Shown: piece by piece, positions 24,426 to 43,336 of the stretch
Position numbering within the stretch: position 1 is the stretch's first letter
Layout: every line of letters starts with the position of its first letter
DNA from: Tubiluchus corallicola
Lineage: Eukaryota > Animalia > Priapulida
DNA length: 64,000 nucleotides
NCBI GenBank assembly: GCA_030141605.1
Contig: JAQGDQ010000555.1
Span: 78,948 to 142,947, forward strand
Direction of reading: 5' to 3'
The notes under the pieces: generated by a model
Seen by the model: the letters and a program-made list of their open reading frames with translations, nothing else
Told to the model about the DNA's origin: nothing
The model's database searches: none
Translations under genes and position numbers: made by a program

Positions 24426-25783
24426 CTCTCTTGGTGCGAGAGAGAGAGAGAGGGGGGGGGGGGGAGGGGAGAGATCACTTTAGTATAAGCTCCTTACCTA
24501 TATTGTCCCTTTGCGTTATAAGGAAAAGCAAATCCTATTTGCTTTGTTCAGCGATTTCTGCAAGTCCAATTTGGAACCACTTCAAAAAATGAGCCATTCT
24601 TCATCTTTCTCCAGGTAACTTAAAGCATGTCACAAGCTAGACTTGTGCAGAAAATCTGTGAATCCTCAAGCAAGCTCTCGGATCTTTCCACAACAATTTT
24701 ATTTGTCCGTTGTTGACTATTATTTCACTACCTCGTGCATCCAGCGATTTAATGTAATTAAAATAAATAGTGAAGAGTAAGAATCACCAACTGTCTAAAT
24801 GGCTAGTCTACTTAAGCCCAGGAAAGTAATTAGTTTCTGTTAGATCATTAAATTTTGCAGCACCTTAAGCTGGTCCGTCTAATAAGTAATTACTAAACAG
24901 GTCAGCAACTGAAGAATGAAAAGGTCAGCAAGTCGAAAATTAGATGATTGTAGCAGCAAAAAACAGCAGAGGAAACAATTAGAAAATTAAAGGTTTGACA
25001 GTTTAAGATACTTCCTTGATTTTCTAGGCATACATTGAAATTCTTGATTAGCGATCTTTAAGGTATAGTAGATGCAAACTATGACGAAGTGTTTCACAAG
25101 GTAGCGCACACCGTCAAGCAGAATCTTATATTTTGACATGTGGCATTTGATATTTTATTTTCCTTAATAATGTGAGCGACAGTACTCTGTGCAGCACAGT
25201 ATTGGTCAAATGTAGCTCTAACGTGATTTTCCGCCTGACTAGACCACGTTATGGAGTGGTTGTTGGCACACACAATCGCGTGTCATCATTGTGAAAAGAT
25301 TTCAATGAGATGTATAAATTTTCATTTTCATGAATCTTGGACTCAATTGCAGCAGTAAATAGTTTATCAAATTTAATATTTACAAGATGGATATTTTACA
25401 GTTTAATGTATAATCGTCAGAAAAACACTTACTTATTTCTTGCCTTCTTCATAAAGACTGCTGTCCTCTCTGGCGTTATTGCAAAAGATGTTGCCTTATT
25501 GGAGGAAAATGCTGTTGCCATATACGATGTGGCTCATGATGCTCTTGTTGTCTGGGTCACTTATGTTGTTGTTTATGTTTATGTCTTTGTCGTTGCTGTT
25601 GTACATTTATTATTCCTCCTATTTGTATTTTTACACGTAAACAAGCCGCATTTAATGAACATTTATTTTGACCTAAGCCTAACTGCATCATAAAAAATTG
25701 GGCTAAATGCAAGTGACGTCTGCACATGATATATAAGACTAATGTATGATTATATGGCGATATAATTGATATAATTATAATAT

Positions 25784-26848
25784 TTGTATGTCAGAATAGC
25801 TACCTCCTATATTTTTGTTCTTCTAAACCATGAGGTTGTATGTCAGAATGGCTGTCTTCTACATTTTAGTTCTTCTAAACCACGAGGTTGTATGTCAGAA
25901 TGGCTACCTTCTACATTTTAGTTCTTCTAAACCATGAGGTTGTATGTCAGAATGGCTGTCTTCTACATTTAGTTCTTCTAAACCACGAGGTTGTATGTCA
26001 GAATGGCTACCTTCTACATTTTAGTTCTTCTAAACCATGAGGTTGTATGTCAGAATGGCTACCTCCTATATTTTTGTTCTTCTAAACCACGAGGTTGTAT
26101 GTCAGAATGGCTGTCTTCTACATTTTAGTTCTTCTAAACCACGAGGTTGTATGTCAGAATGGCTACCTTCTACATTTTAGTTCTTCTGAACCATGAGGTT
26201 GTATGTCAGAATGGCTGTCTTCTACATTTTAGTTCTTCTAAACCACGAGGCTGTATGTCAGAATGGCTACCTTCTACATTTTAGTTCTTCTAAACCACGA
26301 GGTTGTATGTCAGAATGGCTGTCTTCTACATTTTAGTTCTTCTAAACCATGAGGTTGTATGTCAGAATGGCTGTCTTCTACATTTTAGTTCTTCTAAACC
26401 ACGAGGTTGTATGTCAGAATGGCTACCTTCTACATTTTAGTTCTTCAAAACCACGAGGTTGTATGTCAGAATGGCTATCTTCTACATTTTAGTTCTTCTA
26501 AACCACGAGGTTGTGTGTCAGAATGGCTGTCTTCTACATTTTAGTTCTGCTAAACCACGAGGTTGTGTGTCAGAATGGCTACCTTCTACACTTTAGTTCT
26601 TCAAAACCACGAGGTTGTATGTCAGAATGGCTGTCTTCTACATTTTAGTTCTTCTAAACCACGAGGTTGTATGTCAGAATGGCTACCTTCTACATTTTAG
26701 TTCTTCAAAACCACGAGGTTGTATGTCAGAATGGCTATCTTCTACATTTTAGTTCTTCTAAACCACGAGGTTGTGTGTCAGAATGGCTGTCTTCTACATT
26801 TTAGTTCTGCTAAACCACGAGGTTGTGTGTCAGAATGGCTACCTTCTA
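25784..26848. repeat. 52-bp satellite array (about 20 units), target of the insertions
   Basis: Unit CTTCTACATTTTAGTTCTTCTAAACCACGAGGTTGTATGTCAGAATGGCTAC; ends at CTTCTA abutting the LINE tail. Confidence 0.97.
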
Positions 26849-26987
26849 TTTTATTATTATTTATTTATTGACCATGGTCAAAGATATATACAAAAAGTCA
26901 TAAGAATCGTTTCGAGATAGTTGCAACATTTAAGAAATTTGGGCTGATCATAGTCCATAGATCACTCAATGTATGGTGTAGTAACAA

Positions 26988-28487
26988 TTAGAGACCAAAA
27001 ATGGCTAGAGCATCGTGTACAAAATTACAAATATCAGCGGGATTTCCGCTGAAGAAAGTCACTAAATCATCAAATATTAAATCGGAATTGTTTCTTAAGA
27101 TACGTGTTTCAGGGCATTCACATATTACGTGCAGTTCTGTTTGGATTTGTCCACATGAACAGAGTCTTCGCTCTCTTTCAATACGGGACCAACGACCAGT
27201 TTCTATGGCAAGGTTGTGTGAGGAAAGTCTGAGCCTTGACGTTTTTATCCGTTTCAGTTCATTAACATTGTCACAGTAAATTCGATGGATAGAGAGTTCA
27301 GGGTTTAGTTGTAAGTATGTGACAAATTTCGTACGGTCAGAAGCGCGGGTCCTATCTTTGATTCTATTCAGGTCATCATCGATAAAATCACCACGGTATC
27401 CAGTTATATTACGCAAATATCGAGCACATGGGGTGTTTGACTCGCGACACAAATTGTAAACAATCATAAACGGATCATCAGGAATATTCACTCTTGAGCG
27501 AACACTCTTATTGAAAAAGCGAGATTGGGTGTCCTTCACAAAACCATTCAGGGAGGGAAGGCCCAACTCTATGAGACACAAATCATTAGCAGTTGTACGT
27601 CGCACACCGAGTAAACATTTGATAACACTAATATACATCCCTTGAATAGGATTAAGGTCATTGAATAGCCAAGACTCACATCCGTAAGTAATTGCAGCAA
27701 GTAGCGCGGCATTTAAAACTAACTTCTTAACTGCGAAAGGATAAGCTGAATTCTTAGAAATAAATGACACGAACTTCAGTACGTGACAATATTTGTCTTC
27801 GCAGTGTTTTTCCAGAGCGGGTTTAAATTTTCCTGTTGAGCTAAAGACAGCACCGAGGTAAACGTAATAGTCACAGTGATTAACAGTAAGGGGGTTCACT
27901 ACGAGGTCCAGACGATCAACAGCATCGCCATTAATAACCATAAATTTAGTCTTTTTTAAGTTCACCTTCATACCGGATTGATCACAGAACTCAATAAGGA
28001 TACTGAGTTTTTGAATAATACCTTCTCTAGATGTTGACAATAAGATTGTATCATCCATCAACATCAAACAGTGTAAATTTCCTAGGAAACCATCGAGACC
28101 ACATCGAGACTTTAATTCACGAATAAGAGGGTTAATATACAGTGTGAAGAGGAAACAGGATGACGGAGAACCCTGCTTCACACCTAATGTAACACCAATA
28201 ACGGCAGCACCAAGGACCAGCTGCGTATTCACATACATGGCAGCAAGAGCAGAAAGCATCACAAGACGACAGCCAAGAGCTCTCAAGGCCCTAATCAAAC
28301 CAGAACGTGGAACTCTATCGTAAGCTTTCGAGAAGTCTACGAAAACGATATATAATTTCCTCTTTTTAAACAGTGCATAGTCCATTAATAGTCTTAGAGT
28401 CACAATCCACTCAATGCAGGATCTACCCTTTTGGGCGCCAGCCTGCTCCCTATCGGGTTTGAACCACATCTCTAAACGAAAAAACAA
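26988..28487 (-). CDS. 5'-truncated non-LTR reverse transcriptase (RTEX/Proto2-like, tentative), copy 1
   Basis: EQAG, FVDFSKAYD, GVKQGSPSS, LMDD, and C-terminal RLSSH.L.IE.GR...C.C...H....C. No endonuclease; begins inside the RT domain. Confidence 0.9.
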   Translation of the reverse strand: MFFRLEMWFKPDREQAGAQKGRSCIEWIVTLRLLMDYALFKKRKLYIVFVDFSKAYDRVPRSGLIRALRALGCRLVMLSALAAMYVNTQLVLGAAVIGVTLGVKQGSPSSCFLFTLYINPLIRELKSRCGLDGFLGNLHCLMLMDDTILLSTSREGIIQKLSILIEFCDQSGMKVNLKKTKFMVINGDAVDRLDLVVNPLTVNHCDYYVYLGAVFSSTGKFKPALEKHCEDKYCHVLKFVSFISKNSAYPFAVKKLVLNAALLAAITYGCESWLFNDLNPIQGMYISVIKCLLGVRRTTANDLCLIELGLPSLNGFVKDTQSRFFNKSVRSRVNIPDDPFMIVYNLCRESNTPCARYLRNITGYRGDFIDDDLNRIKDRTRASDRTKFVTYLQLNPELSIHRIYCDNVNELKRIKTSRLRLSSHNLAIETGRWSRIERERRLCSCGQIQTELHVICECPETRILRNNSDLIFDDLVTFFSGNPADICNFVHDALAIFGL

Positions 28488-28507
28488 GTTATAGTGTTTT
28501 GATATAA

Positions 28508-30019
28508 TTATAGTTCATCTTCTGATCTTTTGGCACATTCTTTCATTTCTATACTTTCTCCTTGAACTGCGTTTTTGTTTTTAATCTTGAATCTGATCAA
28601 CTTGTACCCAATCCAAATGAGCAAAGAATTCACCTCAATACACGTGATTACCGTCATTAGCCATAGCCAATCTTTCGCAGAAGAGTAATCTTCATACCAG
28701 GCTAATGGTTCCATTTCGTGGTGAGAAATAAGTAGTGCATGAGTTTTGTTAATTAAAGCATTTATCTCGTCGGTATAAGTAGTTAGATTATGGCTCTCCA
28801 ATTTAGGTATCCAACTTTTCACCCGGTGGAGAGAATCACTACATTTGAGAAAATATCCAGGGAGATGATACTCATTAGCTTTCTTGCATGTTAGCACAAG
28901 ACTAGTGTTCTTGGGAATAATCTTTTCTGATGCTCCTGTATATCTTGATACTGTTCTTAATGAATAACTAGCCTGTCTTTGAACTAGCCACCCACCCATT
29001 AATGTAACTACTCCCCAACTTTCTGGCGACCTTTCATATTTGATAGATTGGTCAAACGGTTGGGTTTCCAAATAAGTTGGGCATACAATTACATTAAGAT
29101 CTTGGCAAGATCCAGGAGGAATAATTTTAATTTCATTTATTCCCAAAATCATGTTGAATGCGTTTCCGTGGACAACCCAAGTTCCTCCTTTGACGATTGG
29201 CACATTCTGTGTCTTTACATGTACTTTGCCAGGCACTTGGATGATTTCTCTGACATTGATTAACATCCACAGTCTTCGTGGCTCAGATTTAATGACTATA
29301 GCCCGGCTAGCTCCATAGGATAGCGGGATGCTGTTCTTTTGGTCAGACATGAGAGAATGAAACTGGGTGGGACTGATCAGTAGGGGGTCTATTTTTGAAG
29401 AGGTGATAGATTGTAGGCCATGTCCATATCGGATAGAATTTAAATAGTCGTGAAGTTTCTTCATGTCGTTAGCGTGTGCCATCATCAGGTTATGTACATT
29501 AGCATCTAACTTGCCAACAATTCTCTCTAACTCTTCTAGATCGTGGCCTAGGATACCTATTTCTTTATTAGCTATTTCCAGTTCATGTGCTATTATCCCT
29601 TGATTGTTTCTTAATTCCCCCATTTTCTTATTTAATGAATTTATTTCTGCCCTGTTTGTAGCGCCTAAGGCTAAAGCAGCAGTCGCCTCTGCCATAGCTG
29701 CGCTGGACATAATTAATCCGAGAAATCGTTTTTTCCTGTTATTATGGGTTGAAGAATTATCTTTTTCTCGAAACTGAAAGAGATCGTAATGAATATTCCA
29801 GGCCCGGGACATATCGACTCTAACAACTTTGAAAGATTGTGCCACTTGATACCCAATGGGTTTTGGTTCTGTAATTATAATGCCATAAGACGCCAAGGCA
29901 TCTTGATGTTTGTAGATTATATCTTGCGATAATTGTGGAATAATACTATTTACACTTATTATGGTTCCATAAGTAACAGCTGAAAGAACAAGAAGGATTG
30001 AAAGAGTATAATGACCCAT
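28508..30019 (-). CDS. Endogenous viral class I fusion glycoprotein (paramyxo/pneumovirus F-like), copy 1
   Basis: Signal peptide, furin site RKKR followed by FLGLIMSSAAMAEATAALALG fusion peptide, long heptad repeat, Cys-containing region, membrane-proximal helix, TM segment, cytoplasmic tail; intronless. Confidence 0.88.
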   Translation of the reverse strand: MGHYTLSILLVLSAVTYGTIISVNSIIPQLSQDIIYKHQDALASYGIIITEPKPIGYQVAQSFKVVRVDMSRAWNIHYDLFQFREKDNSSTHNNRKKRFLGLIMSSAAMAEATAALALGATNRAEINSLNKKMGELRNNQGIIAHELEIANKEIGILGHDLEELERIVGKLDANVHNLMMAHANDMKKLHDYLNSIRYGHGLQSITSSKIDPLLISPTQFHSLMSDQKNSIPLSYGASRAIVIKSEPRRLWMLINVREIIQVPGKVHVKTQNVPIVKGGTWVVHGNAFNMILGINEIKIIPPGSCQDLNVIVCPTYLETQPFDQSIKYERSPESWGVVTLMGGWLVQRQASYSLRTVSRYTGASEKIIPKNTSLVLTCKKANEYHLPGYFLKCSDSLHRVKSWIPKLESHNLTTYTDEINALINKTHALLISHHEMEPLAWYEDYSSAKDWLWLMTVITCIEVNSLLIWIGYKLIRFKIKNKNAVQGESIEMKECAKRSEDEL

Positions 30020-30024
30020 TTTGA

Positions 30025-30548
30025 CTTCTACATTTTAGTTCTTCAAAACCACGAGGTTGTATGTCAGAATGGCTATCTTCTACATTTTAGTTCTTCTAAA
30101 CCACGAGGTTGTATGTCAGAATGGCTACCTCCTATATTTTTGTTCTTCAAAACCATGAGGTTGTATGTCAGAATGGCTACCTTCTACATTTTAGTTCTTC
30201 TAAACCACGAGGTTGTATGTCAGAATGGCTATCTTCTACATTTTAGTTCTTCTAAACCACGAGGTTGTATGTCAGAATGGCTATCTTCTACATTTTAGTT
30301 CTTCTAAACCACGAGGTTGTATGTCAGAATGGCTCTTCTACATTTTAGTTCTGCTAAACCACGAGGTTGTATGTCAGAATGGCTATCTTCTACATTTTAG
30401 TTCTTCAAAACCACGAGGTTGTATGTCAGAATGGCTATCTTCTACATTTTAGTTCTTCTAAACCACGAGGTTGTGTGTCAGAATGGCTGTCTTCTACATT
30501 TTAGTTCTGCTAAACCACGAGGTTGTGTGTCAGAATGGCTACCTTCTA
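30025..30548. repeat. 52-bp satellite spacer (10 units + 6 bp)
   Basis: 524 bp = 10x52 + 6 - 2 (one unit has a 2-bp deletion). Confidence 0.96.
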
Positions 30549-30687
30549 TTTTATTATTATTTATTTATTGACCATGGTCAAAGATATATACAAAAAGTCA
30601 TAAGAATCGTTTCGAGATAGTTGCAACATTTAAGAAATTTGGGCTGATCATAGTCCATAGATCACTCAATGTATGGTGTAGTAACAA

Positions 30688-32187
30688 TTAGAGACCAAAA
30701 ATGGCTAGAGCATCGTGTACAAAATTACAAATATCAGCGGGATTTCCGCTGAAGAAAGTCACTAAATCATCAAATATTAAATCGGAATTGTTTCTTAAGA
30801 TACGTGTTTCAGGGCATTCACATATTACGTGCAGTTCTGTTTGGATTTGTCCACATGAACAGAGTCTTCGCTCTCTTTCAATACGGGACCAACGACCGGT
30901 TTCTATGGCAAGGTTGTGTGAGGAAAGTCTGAGCCTTGACGTTTTTATCCGTTTCAGTTCATTAACATTGTCACAGTAAATTCGATGGATAGAGAGTTCA
31001 GGGTTTAGTTGTAAGTATGTGACAAATTTCGTACGGTCAGAAGCGCGGGTCCTATCTTTGATTCTATTCAGGTCATCATCGATAAAATCACCACGGTATC
31101 CAGTTATATTACGCAAATATCGAGCACATGGGGTGTTTGACTCGCGACACAAATTGTAAACAATCATAAACGGATCATCAGGAATATTCACTCTTGAGCG
31201 AACAATCTTATTGAAAAAGCGAGATTGGGTGTCCTTCACAAAACCATTCAGGGAGGAAAGGCCCAACTCTATGAGACACAAATCATTAGCAGTTGTACGT
31301 CGCACACCGAGTAAACATTTGATAACACTAATATACATCCCTTGAATAGGATTAAGGTCATTGAATAGCCAAGACTCACATCCGTAAGTAATTGCAGCAA
31401 GTAGCGCGGCATTTAAAACTAACTTCTTAACTGCGAAAGGATAAGCTGAATTCTTAGAAATAAATGACACGAACTTCAGTACGTGACAATATTTGTCTTC
31501 GCAGTGTTTTTCCAGAGCGGGTTTAAATTTTCCTGTTGAGCTAAAGACAGCACCGAGGTAAACGTAATAGTCACAGTGATTAACAGTAAGGGGGTTCACT
31601 ACGAGGTCCAGACGATCAACAGCATCGCCATTAATAACCATAAATTTAGTCTTTTTTAAGTTCACCTTCATACCGGATTGATCACAGAACTCAATAAGGA
31701 TACTGAGTTTTTGAATAATACCTTCTCTAGATGTTGACAATAAGATTGTATCATCCATCAACATCAAACAGTGTAAATTTCCTAGGAAACCATCGAGACC
31801 ACATCTAGACTTTAATTCACGAATAAGAGGGTTAATATACAGTGTGAAGAGGAAACAGGATGACGGAGAACCCTGCTTCACACCTAATGTAACACCAATA
31901 ACGGCAGCACCAAGGACCAGCTGCGTATTCACATACATGGCAGCAAGAGCAGAAAGCATCACAAGACGACAGCCAAGAGCTCTCAAGGCCCTAATCAAAC
32001 CAGAACGTGGAACTCTATCGTAAGCTTTCGAGAAGTCTACGAAAACGATATATAATTTCCTCTTTTTAAACAGTGCATAGTCCATTAATAGTCTTAGAGT
32101 CACAATCCACTCAATGCAGGATCTACCCTTTTGGGCGCCAGCCTGCTCCCTATCGGGTTTGAACCACATCTCTAAACGAAAAAACAA
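30688..32187 (-). CDS. Truncated non-LTR RT, copy 2
   Basis: Offset 3700 bp from copy 1; differs by 2 aa. Confidence 0.9.
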   Translation of the reverse strand: MFFRLEMWFKPDREQAGAQKGRSCIEWIVTLRLLMDYALFKKRKLYIVFVDFSKAYDRVPRSGLIRALRALGCRLVMLSALAAMYVNTQLVLGAAVIGVTLGVKQGSPSSCFLFTLYINPLIRELKSRCGLDGFLGNLHCLMLMDDTILLSTSREGIIQKLSILIEFCDQSGMKVNLKKTKFMVINGDAVDRLDLVVNPLTVNHCDYYVYLGAVFSSTGKFKPALEKHCEDKYCHVLKFVSFISKNSAYPFAVKKLVLNAALLAAITYGCESWLFNDLNPIQGMYISVIKCLLGVRRTTANDLCLIELGLSSLNGFVKDTQSRFFNKIVRSRVNIPDDPFMIVYNLCRESNTPCARYLRNITGYRGDFIDDDLNRIKDRTRASDRTKFVTYLQLNPELSIHRIYCDNVNELKRIKTSRLRLSSHNLAIETGRWSRIERERRLCSCGQIQTELHVICECPETRILRNNSDLIFDDLVTFFSGNPADICNFVHDALAIFGL

Positions 32188-32207
32188 GTTATAGTGTTTT
32201 GATATAA

Positions 32208-33719
32208 TTATAGTTCATCTTCTGATCTTTTGGCACATTCTTTCATTTCTATACTTTCTCCTTGAACTGCGTTTTTGTTTTTAATCTTGAATCTGATCAA
32301 CTTGTACCCAATCCAAATGAGCAAAGAATTCACCTCAATACACGTGATTACCGTCATTAGCCATAGCCAATCTTTCGCAGAAGAGTAATCTTCATACCAG
32401 GCTAATGGTTCCATTTCGTGGTGAGAAATAAGTAGTGCATGAGTTTTGTTAATTAAAGCATTTATCTCGTCGGTATAAGTAGTTAGATTATGGCTCTCCA
32501 ATTTAGGTATCCAACTTTTCACCCGGTGGAGAGAATCACTACATTTGAGAAAATATCCAGGGAGATGATACTCATTAGCTTTCTTGCATGTTAGCACAAG
32601 ACTAGTGTTCTTGGGAATAATCTTTTCTGATGCTCCTGTATATCTTGATACTGTTCTTAATGAATAACTAGCCTGTCTTTGAACTAGCCACCCACCCATT
32701 AATGTAACTACTCCCCAACTTTCTGGCGACCTTTCATATTTGATAGATTGGTCAAACGGTTGGGTTTCCAAATAAGTTGGGCATACAATTACATTAAGAT
32801 CTTGGCAAGATCCAGGAGGAATAATTTTAATTTCATTTATTCCCAAAATCATGTTGAATGCGTTTCCGTGGACAACCCAAGTTCCTCCTTTGACGATTGG
32901 CACATTCTGTGTCTTTACATGTACTTTGCCAGGCACTTGGATGATTTCTCTGACATTGATTAACATCCACAGTCTTCGTGGCTCAGATTTAATGACTATA
33001 GCCCGGCTAGCTCCATAGGATAGCGGGATGCTGTTCTTTTGGTCAGACATGAGAGAATGAAACTGGGTGGGACTGATCAGTAGGGGGTCTATTTTTGAAG
33101 AGGTGATAGATTGTAGGCCATGTCCATATCGGATAGAATTTAAATAGTCGTGAAGTTTCTTCATGTCGTTAGCGTGTGCCATCATCAGGTTATGTACATT
33201 AGCATCTAACTTGCCAACAATTCTCTCTAACTCTTCTAGATCGTGGCCTAGGATACCTATTTCTTTATTAGCTATTTCCAGTTCATGTGCTATTATCCCT
33301 TGATTGTTTCTTAATTCCCCCATTTTCTTATTTAATGAATTTATTTCTGCCCTGTTTGTAGCGCCTAAGGCTAAAGCAGCAGTCGCCTCTGCCATAGCTG
33401 CGCTGGACATAATTAATCCGAGAAATCGTTTTTTCCTGTTATTATGGGTTGAAGAATTATCTTTTTCTCGAAACTGAAAGAGATCGTAATGAATATTCCA
33501 GGCCCGGGACATATCGACTCTAACAACTTTGAAAGATTGTGCCACTTGATACCCAATGGGTTTTGGTTCTGTAATTATAATGCCATAAGACGCCAAGGCA
33601 TCTTGATGTTTGTAGATTATATCTTGCGATAATTGTGGAATAATACTATTTACACTTATTATGGTTCCATAAGTAACAGCTGAAAGAACAAGAAGGATTG
33701 AAAGAGTATAATGACCCAT
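32208..33719 (-). CDS. Viral F-like glycoprotein, copy 2
   Basis: Same protein as copy 1. Confidence 0.88.
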   Translation of the reverse strand: MGHYTLSILLVLSAVTYGTIISVNSIIPQLSQDIIYKHQDALASYGIIITEPKPIGYQVAQSFKVVRVDMSRAWNIHYDLFQFREKDNSSTHNNRKKRFLGLIMSSAAMAEATAALALGATNRAEINSLNKKMGELRNNQGIIAHELEIANKEIGILGHDLEELERIVGKLDANVHNLMMAHANDMKKLHDYLNSIRYGHGLQSITSSKIDPLLISPTQFHSLMSDQKNSIPLSYGASRAIVIKSEPRRLWMLINVREIIQVPGKVHVKTQNVPIVKGGTWVVHGNAFNMILGINEIKIIPPGSCQDLNVIVCPTYLETQPFDQSIKYERSPESWGVVTLMGGWLVQRQASYSLRTVSRYTGASEKIIPKNTSLVLTCKKANEYHLPGYFLKCSDSLHRVKSWIPKLESHNLTTYTDEINALINKTHALLISHHEMEPLAWYEDYSSAKDWLWLMTVITCIEVNSLLIWIGYKLIRFKIKNKNAVQGESIEMKECAKRSEDEL

Positions 33720-33724
33720 TTTGA

Positions 33725-34248
33725 CTTCTACATTTTAGTTCTTCAAAACCACGAGGTTGTATGTCAGAATGGCTATCTTCTACATTTTAGTTCTTCTAAA
33801 CCACGAGGTTGTATGTCAGAATGGCTACCTCCTATATTTTTGTTCTTCAAAACCATGAGGTTGTATGTCAGAATGGCTACCTTCTACATTTTAGTTCTTC
33901 TAAACCACGAGGTTGTATGTCAGAATGGCTATCTTCTACATTTTAGTTCTTCTAAACCACGAGGTTGTATGTCAGAATGGCTATCTTCTACATTTTAGTT
34001 CTTCTAAACCACGAGGTTGTATGTCAGAATGGCTCTTCTACATTTTAGTTCTGCTAAACCACGAGGTTGTATGTCAGAATGGCTATCTTCTACATTTTAG
34101 TTCTTCAAAACCACGAGGTTGTATGTCAGAATGGCTATCTTCTACATTTTAGTTCTTCTAAACCACGAGGTTGTGTGTCAGAATGGCTGTCTTCTACATT
34201 TTAGTTCTGCTAAACCACGAGGTTGTGTGTCAGAATGGCTACCTTCTA
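33725..34248. repeat. 52-bp satellite spacer (10 units + 6 bp)
   Basis: Same unit-variant pattern as 30025-30548. Confidence 0.96.
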
Positions 34249-34387
34249 TTTTATTATTATTTATTTATTGACCATGGTCAAAGATATATACAAAAAGTCA
34301 TAAGAATCGTTTCGAGATAGCTGCAACATTTAAGAAATTTGGGCTGATCATAGTCCATAGATCACTCAATGTATGGTGTAGTAACAA

Positions 34388-35887
34388 TTAGAGACCAAAA
34401 ATGGCTAGAGCATCGTGTACAAAATTACAAATATCAGCGGGATTTCCGCTGAAGAAAGTCACTAAATCATCAAATATTAAATCGGAATTGTTTCTTAAGA
34501 TACGTGTTTCAGGGCATTCACATATTACGTGCAGTTCTGTTTGGATTTGTCCACATGAACAGAGTCTTCGCTCTCTTTCAATACGGGACCAACGACCGGT
34601 TTCTATGGCAAGGTTGTGTGAGGAAAGTCTGAGCCTTGACGTTTTTATCCGTTTCAGTTCATTAACATTGTCACAGTAAATTCGATGGATAGAGAGTTCA
34701 GGGTTTAGTTGTAAGTATGTGACAAATTTCGTACGGTCAGAAGCGCGGGTCCTATCTTTGATTCTATTCAGGTCATCATCGATAAAATCACCACGGTATC
34801 CAGTTATATTACGCAAATATCGAGCACATGGGGTGTTTGACTCGCGACACAAATTGTAAACAATCATAAACGGATCATCAGGAATATTCACTCTTGAGCG
34901 AACAATCTTATTGAAAAAGCGAGATTGGGTGTCCTTCACAAAACCATTCAGGGAGGGAAGGCCCAACTCTATGAGACACAAATCATTAGCAGTTGTACGT
35001 CGCACACCGAGTAAACATTTGATAACACTAATATACATCCCTTGAATAGGATTAAGGTCATTGAATAGCCAAGACTCACATCCGTAAGTAATTGCAGCAA
35101 GTAGCGCGGCATTTAAAACTAACTTCTTAACTGCGAAAGGATAAGCTGAATTCTTAGAAATAAATGACACGAACTTCAGTACGTGACAATATTTGTCTTC
35201 GCAGTGTTTTTCCAGAGCGGGTTTAAATTTTCCTGTTGAGCTAAAGACAGCACCGAGGTAAACGTAATAGTCACAGTGATTAACAGTAAGGGGGTTCACT
35301 ACGAGGTCCAGACGATCAACAGCATCGCCATTAATAACCATAAATTTAGTCTTTTTTAAGTTCACCTTCATACCGGATTGATCACAGAACTCAATAAGGA
35401 TACTGAGTTTTTGAATAATACCTTCTCTAGATGTTGACAATAAGATTGTATCATCCATCAACATCAAACAGTGTAAATTTCCTAGGAAACCATCGAGACC
35501 ACATCTAGACTTTAATTCACGAATAAGAGGGTTAATATACAGTGTGAAGAGGAAACAGGATGACGGAGAACCCTGCTTCACACCTAATGTAACACCAATA
35601 ACGGCAGCACCAAGGACCAGCTGCGTATTCACATACATGGCAGCAAGAGCAGAAAGCATCACAAGACGACAGCCAAGAGCTCTCAAGGCCCTAATCAAAC
35701 CAGAACGTGGAACTCTATCGTAAGCTTTCGAGAAGTCTACGAAAACGATATATAATTTCCTCTTTTTAAACAGTGCATAGTCCATTAATAGTCTTAGAGT
35801 CACAATCCACTCAATGCAGGATCTACCCTTTTGGGCGCCAGCCTGCTCCCTATCGGGTTTGAACCACATCTCTAAACGAAAAAACAA
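34388..35887 (-). CDS. Truncated non-LTR RT, copy 3
   Basis: Offset 7400 bp from copy 1. Confidence 0.9.
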   Translation of the reverse strand: MFFRLEMWFKPDREQAGAQKGRSCIEWIVTLRLLMDYALFKKRKLYIVFVDFSKAYDRVPRSGLIRALRALGCRLVMLSALAAMYVNTQLVLGAAVIGVTLGVKQGSPSSCFLFTLYINPLIRELKSRCGLDGFLGNLHCLMLMDDTILLSTSREGIIQKLSILIEFCDQSGMKVNLKKTKFMVINGDAVDRLDLVVNPLTVNHCDYYVYLGAVFSSTGKFKPALEKHCEDKYCHVLKFVSFISKNSAYPFAVKKLVLNAALLAAITYGCESWLFNDLNPIQGMYISVIKCLLGVRRTTANDLCLIELGLPSLNGFVKDTQSRFFNKIVRSRVNIPDDPFMIVYNLCRESNTPCARYLRNITGYRGDFIDDDLNRIKDRTRASDRTKFVTYLQLNPELSIHRIYCDNVNELKRIKTSRLRLSSHNLAIETGRWSRIERERRLCSCGQIQTELHVICECPETRILRNNSDLIFDDLVTFFSGNPADICNFVHDALAIFGL

Positions 35888-35907
35888 GTTATAGTGTTTT
35901 GATATAA

Positions 35908-37419
35908 TTATAGTTCATCTTCTGATCTTTTGGCACATTCTTTCATTTCTATACTTTCTCCTTGAACTGCGTTTTTGTTTTTAATCTTGAATCTGATCAA
36001 CTTGTACCCAATCCAAATGAGCAAAGAATTCACCTCAATACACGTGATTACCGTCATTAGCCATAGCCAATCTTTCGCAGAAGAGTAATCTTCATACCAG
36101 GCTAATGGTTCCATTTCGTGGTGAGAAATAAGTAGTGCATGAGTTTTGTTAATTAAAGCATTTATCTCGTCGGTATAAGTAGTTAGATTATGGCTCTCCA
36201 ATTTAGGTATCCAACTTTTCACCCGGTGGAGAGAATCACTACATTTGAGAAAATATCCAGGGAGATGATACTCATTAGCTTTCTTGCATGTTAGCACAAG
36301 ACTAGTGTTCTTGGGAATAATCTTTTCTGATGCTCCTGTATATCTTGATACTGTTCTTAATGAATAACTAGCCTGTCTTTGAACTAGCCACCCACCCATT
36401 AATGTAACTACTCCCCAACTTTCTGGCGACCTTTCATATTTGATAGATTGGTCAAACGGTTGGGTTTCCAAATAAGTTGGGCATACAATTACATTAAGAT
36501 CTTGGCAAGATCCAGGAGGAATAATTTTAATTTCATTTATTCCCAAAATCATGTTGAATGCGTTTCCGTGGACAACCCAAGTTCCTCCTTTGACGATTGG
36601 CACATTCTGTGTCTTTACATGTACTTTGCCAGGCACTTGGATGATTTCTCTGACATTGATTAACATCCACAGTCTTCGTGGCTCAGATTTAATGACTATA
36701 GCCCGGCTAGCTCCATAGGATAGCGGGATGCTGTTCTTTTGGTCAGACATGAGAGAATGAAACTGGGTGGGACTGATCAGTAGGGGGTCTATTTTTGAAG
36801 AGGTGATAGATTGTAGGCCATGTCCATATCGGATAGAATTTAAATAGTCGTGAAGTTTCTTCATGTCGTTAGCGTGTGCCATCATCAGGTTATGTACATT
36901 AGCATCTAACTTGCCAACAATTCTCTCTAACTCTTCTAGATCGTGGCCTAGGATACCTATTTCTTTATTAGCTATTTCCAGTTCATGTGCTATTATCCCT
37001 TGATTGTTTCTTAAGTCCCCCATTTTCTTATTTAATGAATTTATTTCTGCCCTGTTTGTAGCGCCTAAGGCTAAAGCAGCAGTCGCCTCTGCCATAGCTG
37101 CGCTGGACATAATTAATCCGAGAAATCGTTTTTTCCTGTTATTATGGGTTGAAGAATTATCTTTTTCTCGAAACTGAATGAGATCGTAATGAATATTCCA
37201 GGCCCGGGACATATCGACTCTAACAACTTTGAAAGATTGTGCCACTTGATACCCAATGGGTTTTGGTTCTGTAATTATAATGCCATAAGACGCCAAGGCA
37301 TCTTGATGTTTGTAGATTATATCTTGCGATAATTGTGGAATAATACTATTTACACTTATTATGGTTCCATAAGTAACAGCTGAAAGAACAAGAAGGATTG
37401 AAAGAGTATAATGACCCAT
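35908..37419 (-). CDS. Viral F-like glycoprotein, copy 3
   Basis: Two substitutions (F>I, E>D) relative to copies 1 and 2. Confidence 0.88.
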   Translation of the reverse strand: MGHYTLSILLVLSAVTYGTIISVNSIIPQLSQDIIYKHQDALASYGIIITEPKPIGYQVAQSFKVVRVDMSRAWNIHYDLIQFREKDNSSTHNNRKKRFLGLIMSSAAMAEATAALALGATNRAEINSLNKKMGDLRNNQGIIAHELEIANKEIGILGHDLEELERIVGKLDANVHNLMMAHANDMKKLHDYLNSIRYGHGLQSITSSKIDPLLISPTQFHSLMSDQKNSIPLSYGASRAIVIKSEPRRLWMLINVREIIQVPGKVHVKTQNVPIVKGGTWVVHGNAFNMILGINEIKIIPPGSCQDLNVIVCPTYLETQPFDQSIKYERSPESWGVVTLMGGWLVQRQASYSLRTVSRYTGASEKIIPKNTSLVLTCKKANEYHLPGYFLKCSDSLHRVKSWIPKLESHNLTTYTDEINALINKTHALLISHHEMEPLAWYEDYSSAKDWLWLMTVITCIEVNSLLIWIGYKLIRFKIKNKNAVQGESIEMKECAKRSEDEL

Positions 37420-37424
37420 TTTGA

Positions 37425-37792
37425 CTTCTACATTTTAGTTCTTCAAAACCACGAGGTTGTATGTCAGAATGGCTATCTTCTACATTTTAGTTCTTCTAAA
37501 CCACGAGGTTGTATGTCAGAATGGCTACCTCCTATATTTTTGTTCTTCAAAACCATGAGGTTGTATGTCAGAATGGCTACCTTCTACATTTTAGTTCTTC
37601 TAAACCACGAGGTTGTATGTCAGAATGGCTATCTTCTACATTTTAGTTCTTCTAAACCACGAGGTTGTATGTCAGAATGGCTATCTTCTACATTTTAGTT
37701 CTTCTAAACCACGAGGTTGTATGTCAGAATGGCTCTTCTACATTTTAGTTCTGCTAAACCACGAGGTTGTATGTCAGAATGGCTACCTTCTA
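37425..37792. repeat. 52-bp satellite spacer (7 units + 6 bp)
   Basis: 368 bp = 7x52 + 6 - 2; begins and ends with CTTCTA. Confidence 0.96.
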
Positions 37793-37798
37793 TGCAAT

Positions 37799-38866
37799 TT
37801 ATGCAATTTTGAAATTGGTCGTGGTTGTTTGGAATTCATCATCACTGTCTTCGATATACTTGTTTCCTACTGTGTGTCTGGTTACTTGATCCCTTTGAAA
37901 GTTTGCTCTTTCTATGGAGAGGTTTTCCATTGCCTGTCTTACATCTTCAGAGCCCTCATTTCTCGCCGCTGTAGCGGCTTCTCTTCTGATGATTTTTCCT
38001 AGCTGTTTCGCGAATTCGTCGATTGTTGGGGAAACATCAGGCTTTTTATATTGCCAAACACTGTATCGAGGGTCGTTTGTGTTATCCTTATCGGAAATGA
38101 TGTGCAATAATACTGTTGTGAGTACTCTGTTATTGTTAGTACTTATGTTGGTGAATGCATTTTGGTTAAAGTTTTTGGCGTACAAATAGGATTTGTCGGG
38201 TCTCCCAACACAAGTTTGCCAGAACCTTTGGAGCCGGAGCAACTCTTTTATAGTCCATGAGCACCCTATTTTCTTTAACAACTCATTTCTGTCCAGTTTT
38301 GTAGACTCTGTGGCTTGTGCTAACAATTGGGGAAGTGTAAGTGAGGCCCACGTTAGGTGTCTCATTACAGCAAAGTTTACATACCGATAGAGTTCTTCTC
38401 CCCGACCAGTTATCCTTCCGCTCCTTACACAAAGCCCAAACGTCATAAGCGCTGTTGCGCAGACCTCCGGACGTGAAAACACTGTATAGTAAGCATTCCA
38501 TAGTGACTCGTTGACTTTGAGTCCTAGTGGCCTATAATTCCACATCATTGAATTCTCAGTTTCTTCACTCAGTACTTTGTTTCTTACTTGTTTCGATTTG
38601 CCTGCCGCTCGAGTGAGAACCATTACAAGAAAACATATTGAGTCTAATTCCCATTCGTAGATGTCGGTAGCTGCCGTTTCAAAATAACTGTCGACTTTTT
38701 CCCACACCTCAATGATGTCGTTGGTCATGACATCTGGTGATCGTTGAGGAAGTTTAGATAGTTCATGGAGTAATTTGCCTGTGTCACCATCTGATCCGGA
38801 GGTTCCAGGCTCTAGATCTTCTCCCTTTGATCCAGCATTCAATTTGGCATAGCTGCCCAAAGTCAT
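37799..38866 (-). CDS. Endogenous Mononegavirales-like nucleoprotein (355 aa from the likely ATG at 38866)
   Basis: Intronless and helical-looking. SYLYAKNFNQNAFTNISTNNNRVL resembles the YA(R/K).F...F..L....N motif of rhabdovirus-like N proteins; acidic C-tail. The upstream in-frame extension to 39136 looks non-coding. Confidence 0.7.
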   Translation of the reverse strand: MTLGSYAKLNAGSKGEDLEPGTSGSDGDTGKLLHELSKLPQRSPDVMTNDIIEVWEKVDSYFETAATDIYEWELDSICFLVMVLTRAAGKSKQVRNKVLSEETENSMMWNYRPLGLKVNESLWNAYYTVFSRPEVCATALMTFGLCVRSGRITGRGEELYRYVNFAVMRHLTWASLTLPQLLAQATESTKLDRNELLKKIGCSWTIKELLRLQRFWQTCVGRPDKSYLYAKNFNQNAFTNISTNNNRVLTTVLLHIISDKDNTNDPRYSVWQYKKPDVSPTIDEFAKQLGKIIRREAATAARNEGSEDVRQAMENLSIERANFQRDQVTRHTVGNKYIEDSDDEFQTTTTNFKIA

Positions 38867-39125
38867 AGTTTTGTGTTGGAGCGGAAAGTCTTGCGAGAAC
38901 TCATCACACAAATTATTACCAGGTGTTACACATTTTGGATCACGTACAGTATTACCAGATGTTACACATTTTTTGCAAAAGACAAATTTACAATTATATG
39001 TAATAGTAAAACATATGTAACGAGCTACAAATTGGATTAGTACTATACAAGGAGAATGCATTACAGGATAAGATACATATTCACAATTATACGATAATAA
39101 AAATATATAAGGTAAGATTAGGTAG

Positions 39126-39390
39126 ACATCAAACATTCGAGTTCGCCATTCTACTGGTGTTTGCTAAAAGAAATTATTGAGTTTACTAAGAGGTTACTTT
39201 TTTATCTCACTAGTACACATTAGGGGTAAACATCAAACATTCCAGTTCGCCATTCTACTGGTCTTTGCTAAAAGAAATTATTGAGTTTACTAAGGGGTTA
39301 CTTTTTTATCTCATTAGTACACACTAGGGGTAAACATCAAACATTCGAGTTCGCCATTCTACTGGTGTTTGCTAAAAGAAATTATTGAAT
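39126..39390. repeat. About 104-bp tandem repeat, 2.5 copies
   Basis: CATCAAACATTCGAGTTCGCCATTCTACTGG recurs at about 39127, 39231 and 39334, and again at about 42115. Confidence 0.85.
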
Positions 39391-40432
39391 TATTAATGAT
39401 TAGTTTTTATCAGCCGTGCTTTTGCTTAAGTCTCAACCTGGTGGAGTGACTCAAATCAAGCACAGTGTTCATGTTTACTGTCTAAAATATCGAAAATGAA
39501 TTGAAAAACATGATTATTTTTCATATACACTTTTATACATAATTGTCAGATATATTTAAAATAAAATGGGGAAATGATGTTCAAAAACTTGCGCAACAGC
39601 TTGTTTTAAAATGCTGAAATTAATAAATAAAAACAATTTTTAATGACTGTTAGCTATGAGCTTATAGACTTTTGCGTCTAATTGTTTTAATCGCTCAATT
39701 AGCTTATCTATTAGATAAGCAGTTAACTCATTGTTGTGTATCAAATAAGAAATCAAATCTTCGATAAACTGCACTTGTTCTTCCGTTAGTTAAATTTTCC
39801 GTGTAACTGCACACACATTAAAGATATTAAAATTTAGCTTACTTCGTTCGTAGAACGTTTTTCTCCTCCATTTTGTGGTTTAACATTGTACTTGAATTTT
39901 GGAGGAGAATATGCAGGTGGCGGTACTATATTAATTCGCCGTGGTATCATTATACGTTTCTTTCCTCTCTCTAAATAAAAAAATCGCACTTTTCTTTACT
40001 TGTGTCGCATGAAAACTAATTGAATGTCGCGTAGGGTGACGTCATAGAACCCTCGGCTGTTGCTCAGGACCAATCAGAGTTCGTAGCGTCACTCCCAACT
40101 TTTGCGTTATTATGCTTCCGGTTGCTATAGTAACCATTGTAGGTAAATTTGCCCTCCTGGTAAATCCTGTGAAATAAGACGAACAAAAAATCAAGTTTAT
40201 TTTTGGTTACTTTGATTGAGTTTTAACGAACTTAATGCTGTGGAAATATAGTTCAAAAGCTGAATCTGACAGTGATAGTTTTTATTAAAATTCGATAAGC
40301 TTTCACACTATTAATATATAACCTTTGCACATTAATTCAACCGCTAACAGATTTTTTCCCACCTCTCATGGTATTTTTCAGCCATTAAATGGGACGTATA
40401 CGTCACCAAATCCCACAAACAGTATTTCTAAC
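39311..40432. repeat. Local duplication, copy A
   Basis: Homologous to 42093-43150 plus 44177-44258. Confidence 0.9.
40037..40134. promoter_or_regulatory. Promoter motif cluster: CRE, CCAAT, ETS, RFX X-box
   Basis: TGACGTCA 40037, CCAAT 40070, TTCCGG about 40116, GTTGCTATAGTAAC 40121-40134. Confidence 0.55.
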
Positions 40433-41421: not shown

Positions 41422-42092
41422 CTGCAAAATAGGGTGAACATTGAGTTAGAATCCTATCAGGTGTGAAATATAATAAATATGTTTGGCAGAAATAAAGGCA
41501 TCTGTAATTTCCTTCAGTGAGAAATGCGGATTGGTTTTAAGATCCGTATTTGTAGAGGGTTGTATATACACTGCAGGTGTCTCTATGCGTAATTCTCAAC
41601 ATCATTTTCAAGATTTGTAGAGAAAACACTTTATCAGCTGCTTCGCTTTTAACCTAAATAATGACGTAGTTATGCGACCTTACGTCATAGAAACCTGCCA
41701 GGCACAGAGGACCAATAAGAACCCTGACAGCTCGCATTAGCAAAAATTATTTATATATTTAATTATGTATTTACTTATATTTTTTTATTTATTCAGTCAA
41801 CAAGGAGTATTTAAATTTTACAAGGTGCGATACAAAAGTATAGTGTCGTGACATTAAATAGGGGAGACCCGGGTAAAGTGGACATTTACGGGTTTTCGCT
41901 CATAAAGTTCAAGACGTTTGATCTGTAACAATCAATTACATGCCCTATTCTTCCGTAGGAAACTCTGCTATATTCATGTGGTAAAAACTTATAATTACTA
42001 TTACTCGTTTAACCGATAATTCCGAAATACGAAACCAAAATTTCTAGCGCAAAGTGGATCTTTTACGACCATTATGGATCATACGTATGGGC

Positions 42093-43150
42093 ATTAGTAC
42101 ACGTTAGGAGTAAACATCAGACATTCGAGTTCGCCATTCTACTGGTGTTTGCTAAAAGAAATTATTGAATTATTAATGATTAGTATTTATCAGCCGTGCT
42201 TTTGCTTAAGTCTGTACCTGGTGAAGTGACTCAAATCAAGCACAGTGTTCATGTTTACGGTCTAAAACATCGAAAATGAATTGAAAAACATAATTATTTT
42301 TCATATACACTTTTATACATAATTGTCAGATATATTTAAAATAAAATGGGGAAATGATGTTCAAAAAGTTGCGCAACAGTTTGTTTTAAAATGCTGAAAT
42401 TAATAAGTAAAAACAATTTTTAATGACTGTTATAGACTTTTGCGTCTAACTGTTTTAATTGCTCCATTAGCTTATCTATTAGATAAGCAGTTAACTCATT
42501 GTTTTTTATCTAGATTTCTGCTGGATTTCTACTGTGTTTACCTATCTTGAGGGCAGGCTGCTTTCTATAGTATGTCTACAATAGACGTAATAGCCATATG
42601 ATGGCGATAATTTTTCTCATTACTAACCTAACACTGCATGAGCTGAAATTTTCCATGTAACTGCACACACGTTAAAGATATTAAAATTTAGCTTAGTTCG
42701 TTCGTAGAATGTTTTGCTCCTGCATTTTGTGGTTTAACGTTGTACTTGAATTTTGGAGAAGAATATGCAGGTGGCGGTACTATATTAATTCGCCATGGTA
42801 TCTTTTTATATCTCTCTAAAAAACGTAGTTTTCGTTTTGCTTGTATCGCATGAAAAGTAATTGAATGTCGTGTAGGGTGACGTCATAGAGCCCTCGGCTC
42901 TTGCTCAGGACCAATCAGAATTCGTAGCGTCACTCCCAACTTTTGCGTTATTATGCTTCCGGTTGCTATAGTAACCATTGTAGGTAAAATTGCCCTCCTG
43001 GTAAATCCTGTGAAATAAGACGAACAGAAAATCAAGTTTATTTTTGGTTACTTTGATTGAGTTTTAACGAACTTAATCCTGTGGAAATATAGTTTGAAAG
43101 CTGAATCTGACAGAGATAGTTTTTATTAGAATTCGATAAATTTTCACACT
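42093..43150. repeat. Local duplication, copy B (same promoter motif cluster at 42878-42975)
   Basis: Aligns with 39311-40310 apart from a substituted segment near 42510-42640. Confidence 0.9.
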
Positions 43151-43336
43151 AGGCTATGCTAAATGACTAACAAAATTCCTTTAAGATATAGGTGTTTAAA
43201 ACATGAATCTAACATACCATTTGGCTTTGTCCTTTTCTCCTTTGCTCCACTTTTAAATAGTTTTAAATAGTTCTTTTTGATTTGTTGTATTTTGTCAATT
43301 TTTTGTGTTTTTTTCTTTTTTTTCTTCCTCCGTCCA

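Follow-up and report, generated by a model that had tools for sequence, protein, structure and literature searches.

Viral-type genes beside a 52-bp repeat and a truncated LINE in the genome of Tubiluchus corallicola

Two viral-type genes within host DNA

The window analysed here is a 64,000-nt stretch of the Tubiluchus corallicola assembly GCA_030141605.1 (JAQGDQ010000555.1:78,948–142,947, forward strand), and all positions refer to this window. On its minus strand, the locus reads as an N-like open reading frame (ORF), followed by three units—each composed of 52-bp repeats, an F-like ORF, and the 3′ end of a non-LTR retrotransposon (LINE)—and by a final block of repeats. This order, together with strand and coordinates, confirmed the layout proposed in a first-pass annotation, and its description of co-oriented inserts with intact viral ORFs and one repeat between them agreed with our ORF reading, in which N and the three F ORFs are all open and on the minus strand. 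Its label 'F-RT' was apt in that F adjoins a reverse transcriptase (RT), but not as the name of a fusion protein, which is ruled out because F ends at its own stop codon and RT lies in another frame. The viral-type genes are present as DNA inside host sequence: host-type flanks surround the locus within the window, and 0.55–0.89 of the sequence words of positions 34250–39200 occurred in four sequencing runs, three of them guessed to be DNA and one perhaps the assembly's own sample. No RNA run was listed as sharing these words, which has no bearing on expression.

The N-like ORF (37799–38866, minus strand) encodes 355 aa when read from the ATG at 38866, a start that we infer; the open frame extends to 39163 across AT-rich sequence and holds further ATGs at 39136 and 39061. 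Its sole Pfam family match was Rhabdo_ncap_2 (residues 158–256; E = 2.6e-6; 27.6 bits against a cut-off of 25), arguing for homology to a negative-strand virus gene beyond chance. The best Atlas value for N was 0.75, a lead at most, a sequence search of the PDB gave nothing significant, and a fold search with a single-sequence model (pLDDT 35, unusable) yielded no match at E 0.001 or better. No homolog was recovered by a word-seeded search (2,056 candidates) or by a locus scan of IMG/VR. The N stop codon lies six bases from the repeat, without an A run. Upstream of N there is no repeat unit, and comparison of its 5′ side—a junction known from the assembly alone—with the distal flank revealed no common word longer than 10 bases and no convincing duplication. 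Endogenous bornavirus copies (EBLNs) are attributed to host RT; a processed mRNA copy of this type does not describe the locus, since N carries neither poly(A) nor a flanking duplication and F ends in a T run.

The F-like ORF occurs three times on the minus strand, as copy 1 (35908–37419; 503 aa) and the near-identical copies 2 (32208–33719) and 3 (28508–30019). Along the protein lie a hydrophobic N-terminus (residues 5–23), an RKKR motif (95–98), a second hydrophobic stretch (100–118), and a TM-like stretch (452–470), with hydropathy peaks at 5, 100, and 452 and four N-glycosylation sequons. Between approximately residues 119 and 195, the fraction of hydrophobic a/d positions is 0.73 in the best heptad register, compared with 0.23–0.55 in the other six. 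As far as sequence features can tell, this is the anatomy of a class I viral fusion protein, with putative signal peptide, basic cleavage site, fusion peptide, heptad repeat, and C-terminal TM segment.

The first-pass reading of N and F as genes resembling those of negative-strand RNA viruses was upheld, with N above its family cut-off and F appearing the weaker case. F matched Pfam Fusion_gly at E = 0.0043, under the family cut-off, and reached 0.97 to Fusion_gly F0 clusters in the Atlas, but with a recognition value of 1761, below the tool's mark of 2300. The best three Atlas rows (0.96–0.97) were Fusion_gly clusters, 95–100% viruses and mostly Negarnaviricota, with Baculo_F (0.95) and Gypsy env (0.92) close behind. 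Five of six PDB matches to residues 85–260 were F proteins, though only at E 0.48–0.83; the whole protein gave nothing significant by sequence, and its single-sequence structure model (mean pLDDT 33) was unusable. Because no homolog was recovered by a word-seeded search (7,995 scored) or by a locus scan of IMG/VR or JGI metagenomes, F could not be placed on a tree. The accessible parts of an echinoderm virome paper (10.1101/2022.03.01.482561) contain nothing on N or F.

A truncated LINE and a local repeat array

Each F copy is followed by a LINE piece of 1,630 bases on the same strand (copy 1, 34249–35878; copy 2, 30549–32178; copy 3, 26849–28478), F and LINE copies 2 and 3 corresponding to copy 1 shifted by 3,700 and 7,400 bases. 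This 5′-truncated non-LTR element comprises RT and a C-terminal Cys/His motif up to a stop codon at 34388, a 3′ UTR, and an AAT-rich tail. Its RT (Pfam RVT_1, E = 1.3e-26) is of the non-LTR type, judged by profile match and by alignment with relatives, three of seven of which reach approximately 370 alignment columns further N-terminally. In sequencing run X3, from a second study, contigs with 1,062 and 593 aligned bases showed 6 and 2 differences to the window; the LINE family is young and multicopy, and the piece described here represents its last 1.63 kb. Devoid of an endonuclease domain, it cannot move itself, and an autonomous envelope-carrying LINE is ruled out by this lack and by the shortened RT. 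One LINE copy in X3 continues into another sequence at its 3′ end (place 34251), hence the family is not confined to the 52-bp repeat. Run X5 contained two pieces of below 90% identity that matched the LINE part only, without bearing on expression, and in run X6 (guessed to be RNA) no piece matched the locus, which bears on neither expression nor absence.

The repeat forms four minus-strand blocks. Block B4 (37425–37792; 7 units, variant string ABBCDBE) separates N from the first F, whereas B3 (33725–34248) and B2 (30025–30548) each hold 10 units with the shared string FGH + ABBCDBE, that is, a head like that of B1 followed by a part identical to B4. B1 (25784–26848; 20.5 units) forms the distal end of the array, next to AT-rich host sequence. 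The inner blocks B2 and B3 are therefore recombinants of the outer ones. Positions 26849–30548 and 30549–34248 differ at 4 of 3,700 positions, F copies at 0–2 of 1,512 nt, and RT copies at 1–4 of 1,491 nt. Given near-identical units with recombinant blocks between them, there was one F capture rather than three: independent captures are ruled out in favour of a single 3.7-kb insert copied in tandem. The three inserts of the first-pass annotation are thus present but not separate, and its notion of a repeat-interspaced viral archive did not hold, as the three units stem from one amplified capture and the 52-bp repeat occurs nowhere else in the window, all 48 units lying at this locus. Alleles specific to copy 1 (34321, 37015, 37179) were absent from contigs, which drop variants and are neutral on the triplication.

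Judged by a rough depth ratio, the repeat is more consistent with a local minisatellite than with a genome-wide satellite: its summed contig depth is approximately 29-fold that of F, compared with 16:1 in the window, a figure that is uncalibrated and does not give a copy number. An exact-match search of IMG/VR and JGI contigs with a 21-base piece of the repeat found nothing, which tells little either way. Folding was no better than that of shuffled sequences for the repeat (z –0.24), the N 5′ region (z 0.24), or the F/LINE junction (z –0.32). The F stop region agrees with the repeat unit at 12 of 14 positions, to which we attach no weight since N and LINE reach 11 of 14.

The array starts 6 bases past the N stop codon and ends 5 bases before the F ATG. 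The 3′ end of N and the 3′ tail of the LINE meet the repeat at an identical base, and in both cases a rare GCAG-type unit (7 of the 48) comes next. A shared nicking site would give such a same-base junction. The first-pass proposal of a LINE that nicks this repeat is borne out to that extent, but not as a general rule, given the other 3′ flank of the X3 copy. With these same-base joins and the rare unit at both places, a LINE-capture model needs a strong site preference.

Origin of the locus

In the stretch between F and LINE (35876–35907, minus strand), six T precede CGT, the first three bases of the LINE match; we regard this as a candidate viral RNA terminus and template-switch point. The LINE starts 30 bases past the F stop codon, in the same orientation and with no repeat unit between. 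Of 987 CGT sites counted on both strands, 3 follow six T, and these are the three copies of this junction; runs of at least five T are absent from the F and N coding strands. The ends of antigenomes generally mirror the leader. Read as its reverse complement, the T6-CGT junction begins ACGAA, which is the start of the VSV leader, with 3′-UGC as the VSV terminal promoter in the available part of PMC6636387. The junction thus appears to resemble a rhabdovirus RNA terminus more than a polyadenylated mRNA. CGT belongs to the LINE in any case, and the six T could be the oligo-U tail of a degraded mRNA.

In runs X1 and X3, other LINE copies run on upstream of 35878 with different sequence. One X1 record (35849–36286, 0 differences) reaches across the F/LINE junction and includes 30 letters of the LINE, the bridging rule being 31 letters; no X3 contig bridges it. 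The motif TAGAAG precedes each F and follows each LINE tail. As a target-site duplication, these six bases are weak evidence, since any pair of breakpoints within a tandem array will look like a duplication.

The run contigs break at the repeats; those of X1 and X3 cover the F region and reveal F-like sequence to be multicopy. The DNA run X1 contains at least two further F variants, one with 40 differences over 306 bases at depth 1,374 and one with 15 differences and a 406-base skip at depth 88, as well as two contigs in which N-like sequence runs into the repeat at place 34249 and which agree with each other at only 0.9. These diverged F copies and the second N/repeat junction point to related viruses having probably integrated more than once.

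With its foreign part 5′, a 5′-truncated LINE with intact 3′ tail, and both in the same orientation, the insert has the anatomy of a U6/L1-type chimera, and the earlier claim of a non-LTR retrotransposon as the writing agent is likely correct for F. We favour, with a probability of roughly 0.6, an origin of F and the truncated LINE tail through a switch of the LINE RT onto a negative-strand viral RNA, followed by triplication through unequal crossover. Target-primed reverse transcription would have started in the repeat from the LINE tail; at 35878, a template switch or an earlier ligation of the two RNAs would have taken RT onto the viral RNA, and the entire F gene would have been copied. The switch point was probably the 3′ end of a plus-sense viral RNA, with three bases shared at T6-CGT. 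Unequal crossover between the flanking repeat blocks would then have triplicated the insert, and N, from the same or a related virus, may have been added independently by this machinery, with the nick at an identical position of the repeat. N lacks poly(A), an upstream repeat unit, and a convincing 5′ duplication, which a second insertion into the array would usually leave.

Instead, a single capture of one viral RNA may have delivered both genes, with N, one 52-base spacer, and F contiguous on a plus-sense RNA and F as the last gene of a segment or rearranged genome; the LINE RT would have jumped to the 3′ end of this RNA and copied F, spacer, and N, the spacer later expanding into the minisatellite; we consider this unlikely. 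It would account for an F/LINE junction that looks like a terminus rather than a polyadenylated mRNA, for the close fit of the array between the N stop codon and F ATG with no units upstream of N or elsewhere in the window, and for the composition of the repeat unit, which is A-rich on the coding strand (0.385) like N (0.351) and F (0.346; LINE, 0.269). From the X1 contig pair it also follows that a diverged N has the same repeat neighbour. However, capture alone leaves unexplained the 20.5-unit block in the same register after the last LINE tail, and the inverse terminal motif searched for upstream of N was not found. In the usual mononegaviral gene order, N is not directly followed by F, as it would be here. 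Somewhat more doubtful still is the fuller version: a fossil of an undescribed negative-strand virus that carried a rhabdovirus-like N and a paramyxovirus-like class I F on one short RNA, F last, onto whose antigenome end the LINE RT jumped to copy everything, the spacer becoming a minisatellite that drove amplification of the fusogen.

We give little credence to an archive into which a repeat-preferring LINE repeatedly writes viral RNAs as a heritable small-RNA source. Mosquito EVE-derived piRNAs have been proposed as antiviral memory (PMC9962485, accessible part), and the shared junction of N and LINE tail, the second diverged N/repeat junction, and the at least two further F variants in X1 would suit it, but the window holds at most two captures, the three F units being copies, the repeat looks local, and the X3 LINE copy has another 3′ flank. 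Similarly improbable is an older, host-retained (domesticated) family of viral F genes, with a LINE later inserted behind one member or retro-copying a host transcript. Besides the multicopy F-like sequence, also seen in X3, it could draw on the differences between window and contigs in the F region, 29 of 32 of which fall at third codon positions (binomial p 2e-11; 40 of 86 difference rows), a pattern that would indicate purifying selection. Yet divergence between virus strains gives the same pattern, F ends without host-type poly(A), and TAGAAG is common to the repeat–F and LINE–repeat junctions, as for one insert. Least probable is an errantivirus (Ty3/gypsy) env, retro-copied by a LINE and unrelated to N: env genes of the F type, complete with furin site and fusion peptide, occur widely among gypsy elements of invertebrates (PMC13524379, accessible part) and the Atlas lists Baculo_F and Gypsy env, but its best three rows and the (non-significant) PDB matches favour viral F proteins, no gag, LTR-type pol, or LTR lies beside F, the adjacent RT is non-LTR, and the neighbour is a rhabdo-like N.

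Significance and comparison with known systems

By default, we take the locus to be a recent, neutral insertion and claim no function for it. It likely represents a viral fossil of unusual clarity, not an immune archive, and does not show a new immune system. The role of LINEs in the formation of non-retroviral endogenous viral elements (EVEs) usually has to be deduced from tails or from elements close by. At this locus, an intact viral-type gene is still directly attached to the LINE, and the LINE family is young, which makes the capture step directly readable and allows the responsible element to be identified; the F/LINE junction further suggests that replicative viral RNA, not mRNA, may be the template. 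The collections searched yielded no close relative of N or F, so the locus points to a virus lineage not yet sampled. In rhabdoviruses, the G protein belongs to class III; this lineage possibly pairs a rhabdo-like N with a class I fusogen. The minisatellite, in turn, can amplify a fresh fusogen gene and so provide raw material for domestication.

The following comparisons draw on the available sections of each source. N passes the Pfam cut-off for the novirhabdovirus-type N (PF03216), and F shares class I anatomy with the paramyxovirus-type F (PF00523). Novirhabdo-like viruses and glycoprotein exchange have been reported in invertebrate chordates (tunicates; 10.1101/2024.12.15.628590), in the available text of which the pairing of a rhabdo-like N with a class I F was not found.

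Mononegavirales EVEs attributed to host RT (filovirus-like, PMC2906475; teleost paramyxovirus, PMC11521997; crustacean, PMC4573495) are likewise chromosomal DNA copies of negative-strand virus genes, some with long ORFs, and for several filovirus-like elements the nearest flanking coding region is a truncated LINE-1 (PMC2906475). In contrast to these, the LINE and the viral gene described here meet base to base, poly(A) tails are absent from both viral genes, and the LINE-joined gene resembles F and not N or L, the teleost paramyxovirus EVEs being RdRp and N (PMC11521997). Virus–retrotransposon hybrid vDNA of mosquitoes (PMC9962485) similarly combines an RNA virus with a retrotransposon through retrotransposon RT and is integrated, but involves mainly LTR elements (Ty1, Ty3, Bel/Pao) instead of a non-LTR element. 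In STORM of Scheffersomyces (10.64898/2026.05.24.726934), a virus-derived gene is likewise repeated in tandem at a single locus; STORM is old, diverged, and transcribed, whereas the copies here are 99.9% identical, each with its LINE piece and repeat block.

As in the U6/L1-type 5′-RNA/3′-LINE chimeras (10.1101/2025.02.02.635956), which arise by template switch or RNA ligation, foreign RNA lies 5′ of a 5′-truncated LINE with intact 3′ end in the same orientation, and a flanking duplication may likewise be present here. The words 'viral' and 'virus' have 0 occurrences in the main text of that study. At the present locus, the 5′ partner is a whole viral-type gene rather than a host RNA, the LINE is not L1, and the chimera is triplicated inside a minisatellite.

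Layout and amplification of the array

On the minus strand, the locus is arranged as the first-pass annotation had claimed: an N-like (nucleoprotein-like) ORF, a block of a 52-bp repeat, and three units, each made of an F-like (fusion-protein-like) ORF and a LINE piece and each followed by further repeats. The N-like ORF, an open frame that ends at 37799 and gives 355 residues from the ATG at 38866, is followed by seven repeat units (37792–37425), the first F-like ORF (37419–35908; 503 residues) and a reverse transcriptase (RT) frame, which by ORF reading ends at 34388 and gives way to a short UTR and an AAT-rich tail reaching 34249. Ten repeat units lie behind this first LINE tail, the F and RT part is present twice more in the window sequence in steps of 3,700 bases, and a distal block of 20.5 units closes the array at 25784.

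The units are nearly identical, with 4 of 3,700 bases differing between 26849–30548 and 30549–34248, 0–2 of 1,512 among the F copies and 1–4 of 1,491 among the RT copies. When all 48 repeat units were typed by variant, the after-N block read ABBCDBE, the two inner blocks each read FGHABBCDBE, and the distal block began FGIJK; each inner block thus consists of the head of the distal block plus the whole after-N block, one base at the joint excepted, a structure that unequal crossover between two flanking arrays would produce. The near-identical units and recombinant inner blocks therefore make the repetition a record of amplification, not of repeated capture. Of the earlier interpretation as a repeat-interspaced archive written by a non-LTR retrotransposon, the viral look of the genes and a LINE as likely agent for F stood, whereas the three units proved to be one F insert, amplified. 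The copy number of three comes from the assembly; read contigs break at the repeats and their depths are uncalibrated.

The window is AT-rich and holds many unrelated minisatellites and other LINE pieces. We take the host to be an animal, most likely an invertebrate. About twelve unrelated minisatellites (periods 6, 24, 48, 53, 57, 60, 96, 104, and 107) lie within 4998–64000, including a second, unrelated 52-bp array at 60673–64000, and the viral-gene array is one among many tandem arrays in the region. Just past its distal end, a 119-codon plus-strand frame (25334–25693) contains a long hydrophobic stretch, for which a Pfam search returned no family of note. A multi-finger C2H2 zinc-finger ORF (449 aa; 50946–52295, plus strand) and an uninterrupted trypsin-family protease ORF with a hydrophobic N-terminus (59213–60169, minus strand) were also observed.

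The LINE piece, its junctions and the N-like gene

The RT frame matches RVT_1 in Pfam and, among 7,998 scored proteins, gave 611 matches (best identity, 70%). Three of seven aligned relatives, from at least 120 listed, reach ~370 columns further N-terminally, and the insert is therefore missing both the endonuclease and the first part of the RT region. Contigs from X1 and X3—sequencing runs of two separate studies, either of which may represent the assembly's own sample—match the window as far as 35878 and then continue into other sequence, which fixes the truncation point of the LINE and indicates longer copies in the genome. The LINE family is young, since X3 contigs differ from the window at only 6 of 1,062 and 2 of 593 bases, and it is not confined to the 52-bp repeat, as an X3 contig runs into another 3′ flank at 34251. 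An F-RT fusion protein was rejected, because the F frame closes at a stop of its own 30 bases ahead of the LINE. Another LINE RT in the window is only distantly related (23% over 199 residues). At 46725–49993 (plus strand) lies a broken LINE that encodes PHD finger, endonuclease, and RT domains, with an inverted partial copy, ~91% identical, at 2240–3921.

At the F-LINE join, six T precede CGT, where the LINE match starts. Among the 987 CGT sites that the two strands of the window contain, three carry this word, all of them copies of the junction, and runs of at least five T are absent from the coding strands of N and F. In rhabdoviruses, the ends of the antigenome generally mirror those of the genome. 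On the opposite strand the junction starts with ACGAA, the same as VSV leader RNA, in whose template 3′-UGC is described as the minimal terminal promoter (PMC6636387). We read the junction as a probable jump to the 3′ terminus of a viral RNA of plus sense, putatively an antigenome, with three shared bases; alternatively, the T run would come from a broken mRNA bearing an oligo-U tail. One X1 contig (record 4) spans the junction with 0 differences, its LINE side measuring 30 letters where the bridging rule needs 31. TAGAAG stands before each F and after each LINE tail, compatible with a target-site duplication, albeit a weak sign inside a tandem array.

Taken as a whole, the scenario we favor, at a probability of roughly 0.6, is that target-primed reverse transcription started at the LINE tail inside the minisatellite, moved to viral RNA after 1.63 kb and copied F; unequal crossover would then have triplicated the F-LINE unit, and N would have been inserted in a separate event, at an identical nick position in the repeat. 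Of this, the anatomy, the truncation, the near-identity of the units and the recombinant blocks can be read from the sequence, and the switch, the antigenome template, the crossover and the route of N are inferred.

The N-like protein matches a single Pfam family, Rhabdo_ncap_2 (residues 158–256; E 2.6e-6, above cut-off), which we take to be the novirhabdovirus N family; a word-seeded protein homolog search and an IMG/VR locus scan found no close relative. N lacks poly(A), and its boundary with the repeat falls on the same base as that of the LINE tail, with a GCAG-type unit, rare in the array (7/48), directly after both junctions. Upstream of N, the window sequence contains neither a repeat unit nor a clear duplication. 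This shared join, incompletely explained, would follow either if nicking strongly favored this base or if the repeat arrived together with N. The latter would suit the alternative that N, spacer, and F lay on one viral RNA and that the repeat is of viral origin, which we consider unlikely; similarly doubtful is its fuller form, a virus with a rhabdo-type N and a class I F, copied whole from the antigenome end, whose spacer became the minisatellite. A word search of an open-access library, which does not imply absence from print, found no rhabdo-like N paired with a class I F. In X1, two contigs with an agreement of only 0.9 carry a join between N-like sequence and the repeat at this position, so the repeat also neighbors a diverged N. 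Summed depth is ~29-fold higher on the repeat than on F, compared with a ratio of 16:1 in the window; as uncalibrated depth does not give a copy number, the figure is no more than a hint of a local minisatellite. A true archive of captured viral genes, from which the locus departs in its single F capture, is improbable.

Two 34-base direct repeats (38903–38972; 85% identical, 36 apart) immediately precede the N 5′ region and may mark the host/insert boundary. A dispersed repeat that occurs twice (39121–40310 and 42092–43151; 91–93% identical) has at its end a 104-bp tandem repeat, which lies ~250 bases 5′ of the N start.

The F-like protein and its variants

By its predicted anatomy, the F-like protein is a class I fusion protein. 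Its N-terminus is hydrophobic, a second hydrophobic stretch, rich in Gly/Ala, comes after RKKR at 95–98, and the protein further has a heptad pattern, four sequons and, at 452–470, another hydrophobic stretch. Pfam Fusion_gly matched at an E value of 0.0043 only, spanning the cleavage site and fusion peptide, and F proteins made up five of six weak PDB sequence matches to residues 85–260 (E 0.48–0.83). An Atlas ranking, at low recognition, placed Fusion_gly F0 clusters of Negarnaviricota first (0.96–0.97), followed by Baculo_F (0.95) and gypsy env clusters (0.92). No close relative was found by a word-seeded protein search or by IMG/VR and JGI metagenome locus scans.

Within the region compared for F (34200–37476), X1 contains the window's F (depth 865–977), a second variant (depth 1,374–1,525) that differs at 40 of 306 bases, and a third copy (window 36552–36959; depth 88), ~9% diverged with a 406-base skip; in X3, contigs of the window's F each show a single difference, and further pieces are 12–15% diverged. 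Among 40 difference rows listed (46 further rows exist), 29 of 32 F-region differences fall on third codon positions; the 32 include two that represent the alleles of copies 2 and 3. This third-position bias argues that F was under purifying selection, in separately integrated virus strains or in the host. Selection in the host would be the setting for an older domesticated family as the source of F, a reading we find hard to credit. An RNA-virus origin of F is likely, though unproven, given that similar F-type env genes are reported in gypsy elements (PMC13524379); that F is itself a gypsy env, a class ranked behind Negarnaviricota, is very unlikely.

Comparison with known systems

We regard the locus as a recent, intact, LINE-joined viral fusion-gene fossil, amplified in tandem, from an unsampled virus lineage. 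The same open-access word search, with the same bearing on print, found no virus-gene/non-LTR chimera of this form, and virus-retrotransposon hybrids have been described mainly for LTR elements (PMC9962485). As a non-retroviral endogenous viral element (EVE), it belongs to a class reported as common in crustaceans (PMC4573495), represented in fish by paramyxovirus L and N (PMC11521997), and noted near truncated LINE-1 (PMC2906475); novirhabdo-like viruses and glycoprotein exchange are described in tunicates (10.1101/2024.12.15.628590). It differs from EBLN-type insertions in lacking poly(A). Tandem paleoviral arrays are likewise known (10.64898/2026.05.24.726934), and the locus resembles U6/L1-type chimeras, in which a foreign RNA stands on the 5′ side of a co-oriented, truncated LINE and which are reported to form by template switch or RNA ligation (10.1101/2025.02.02.635956).
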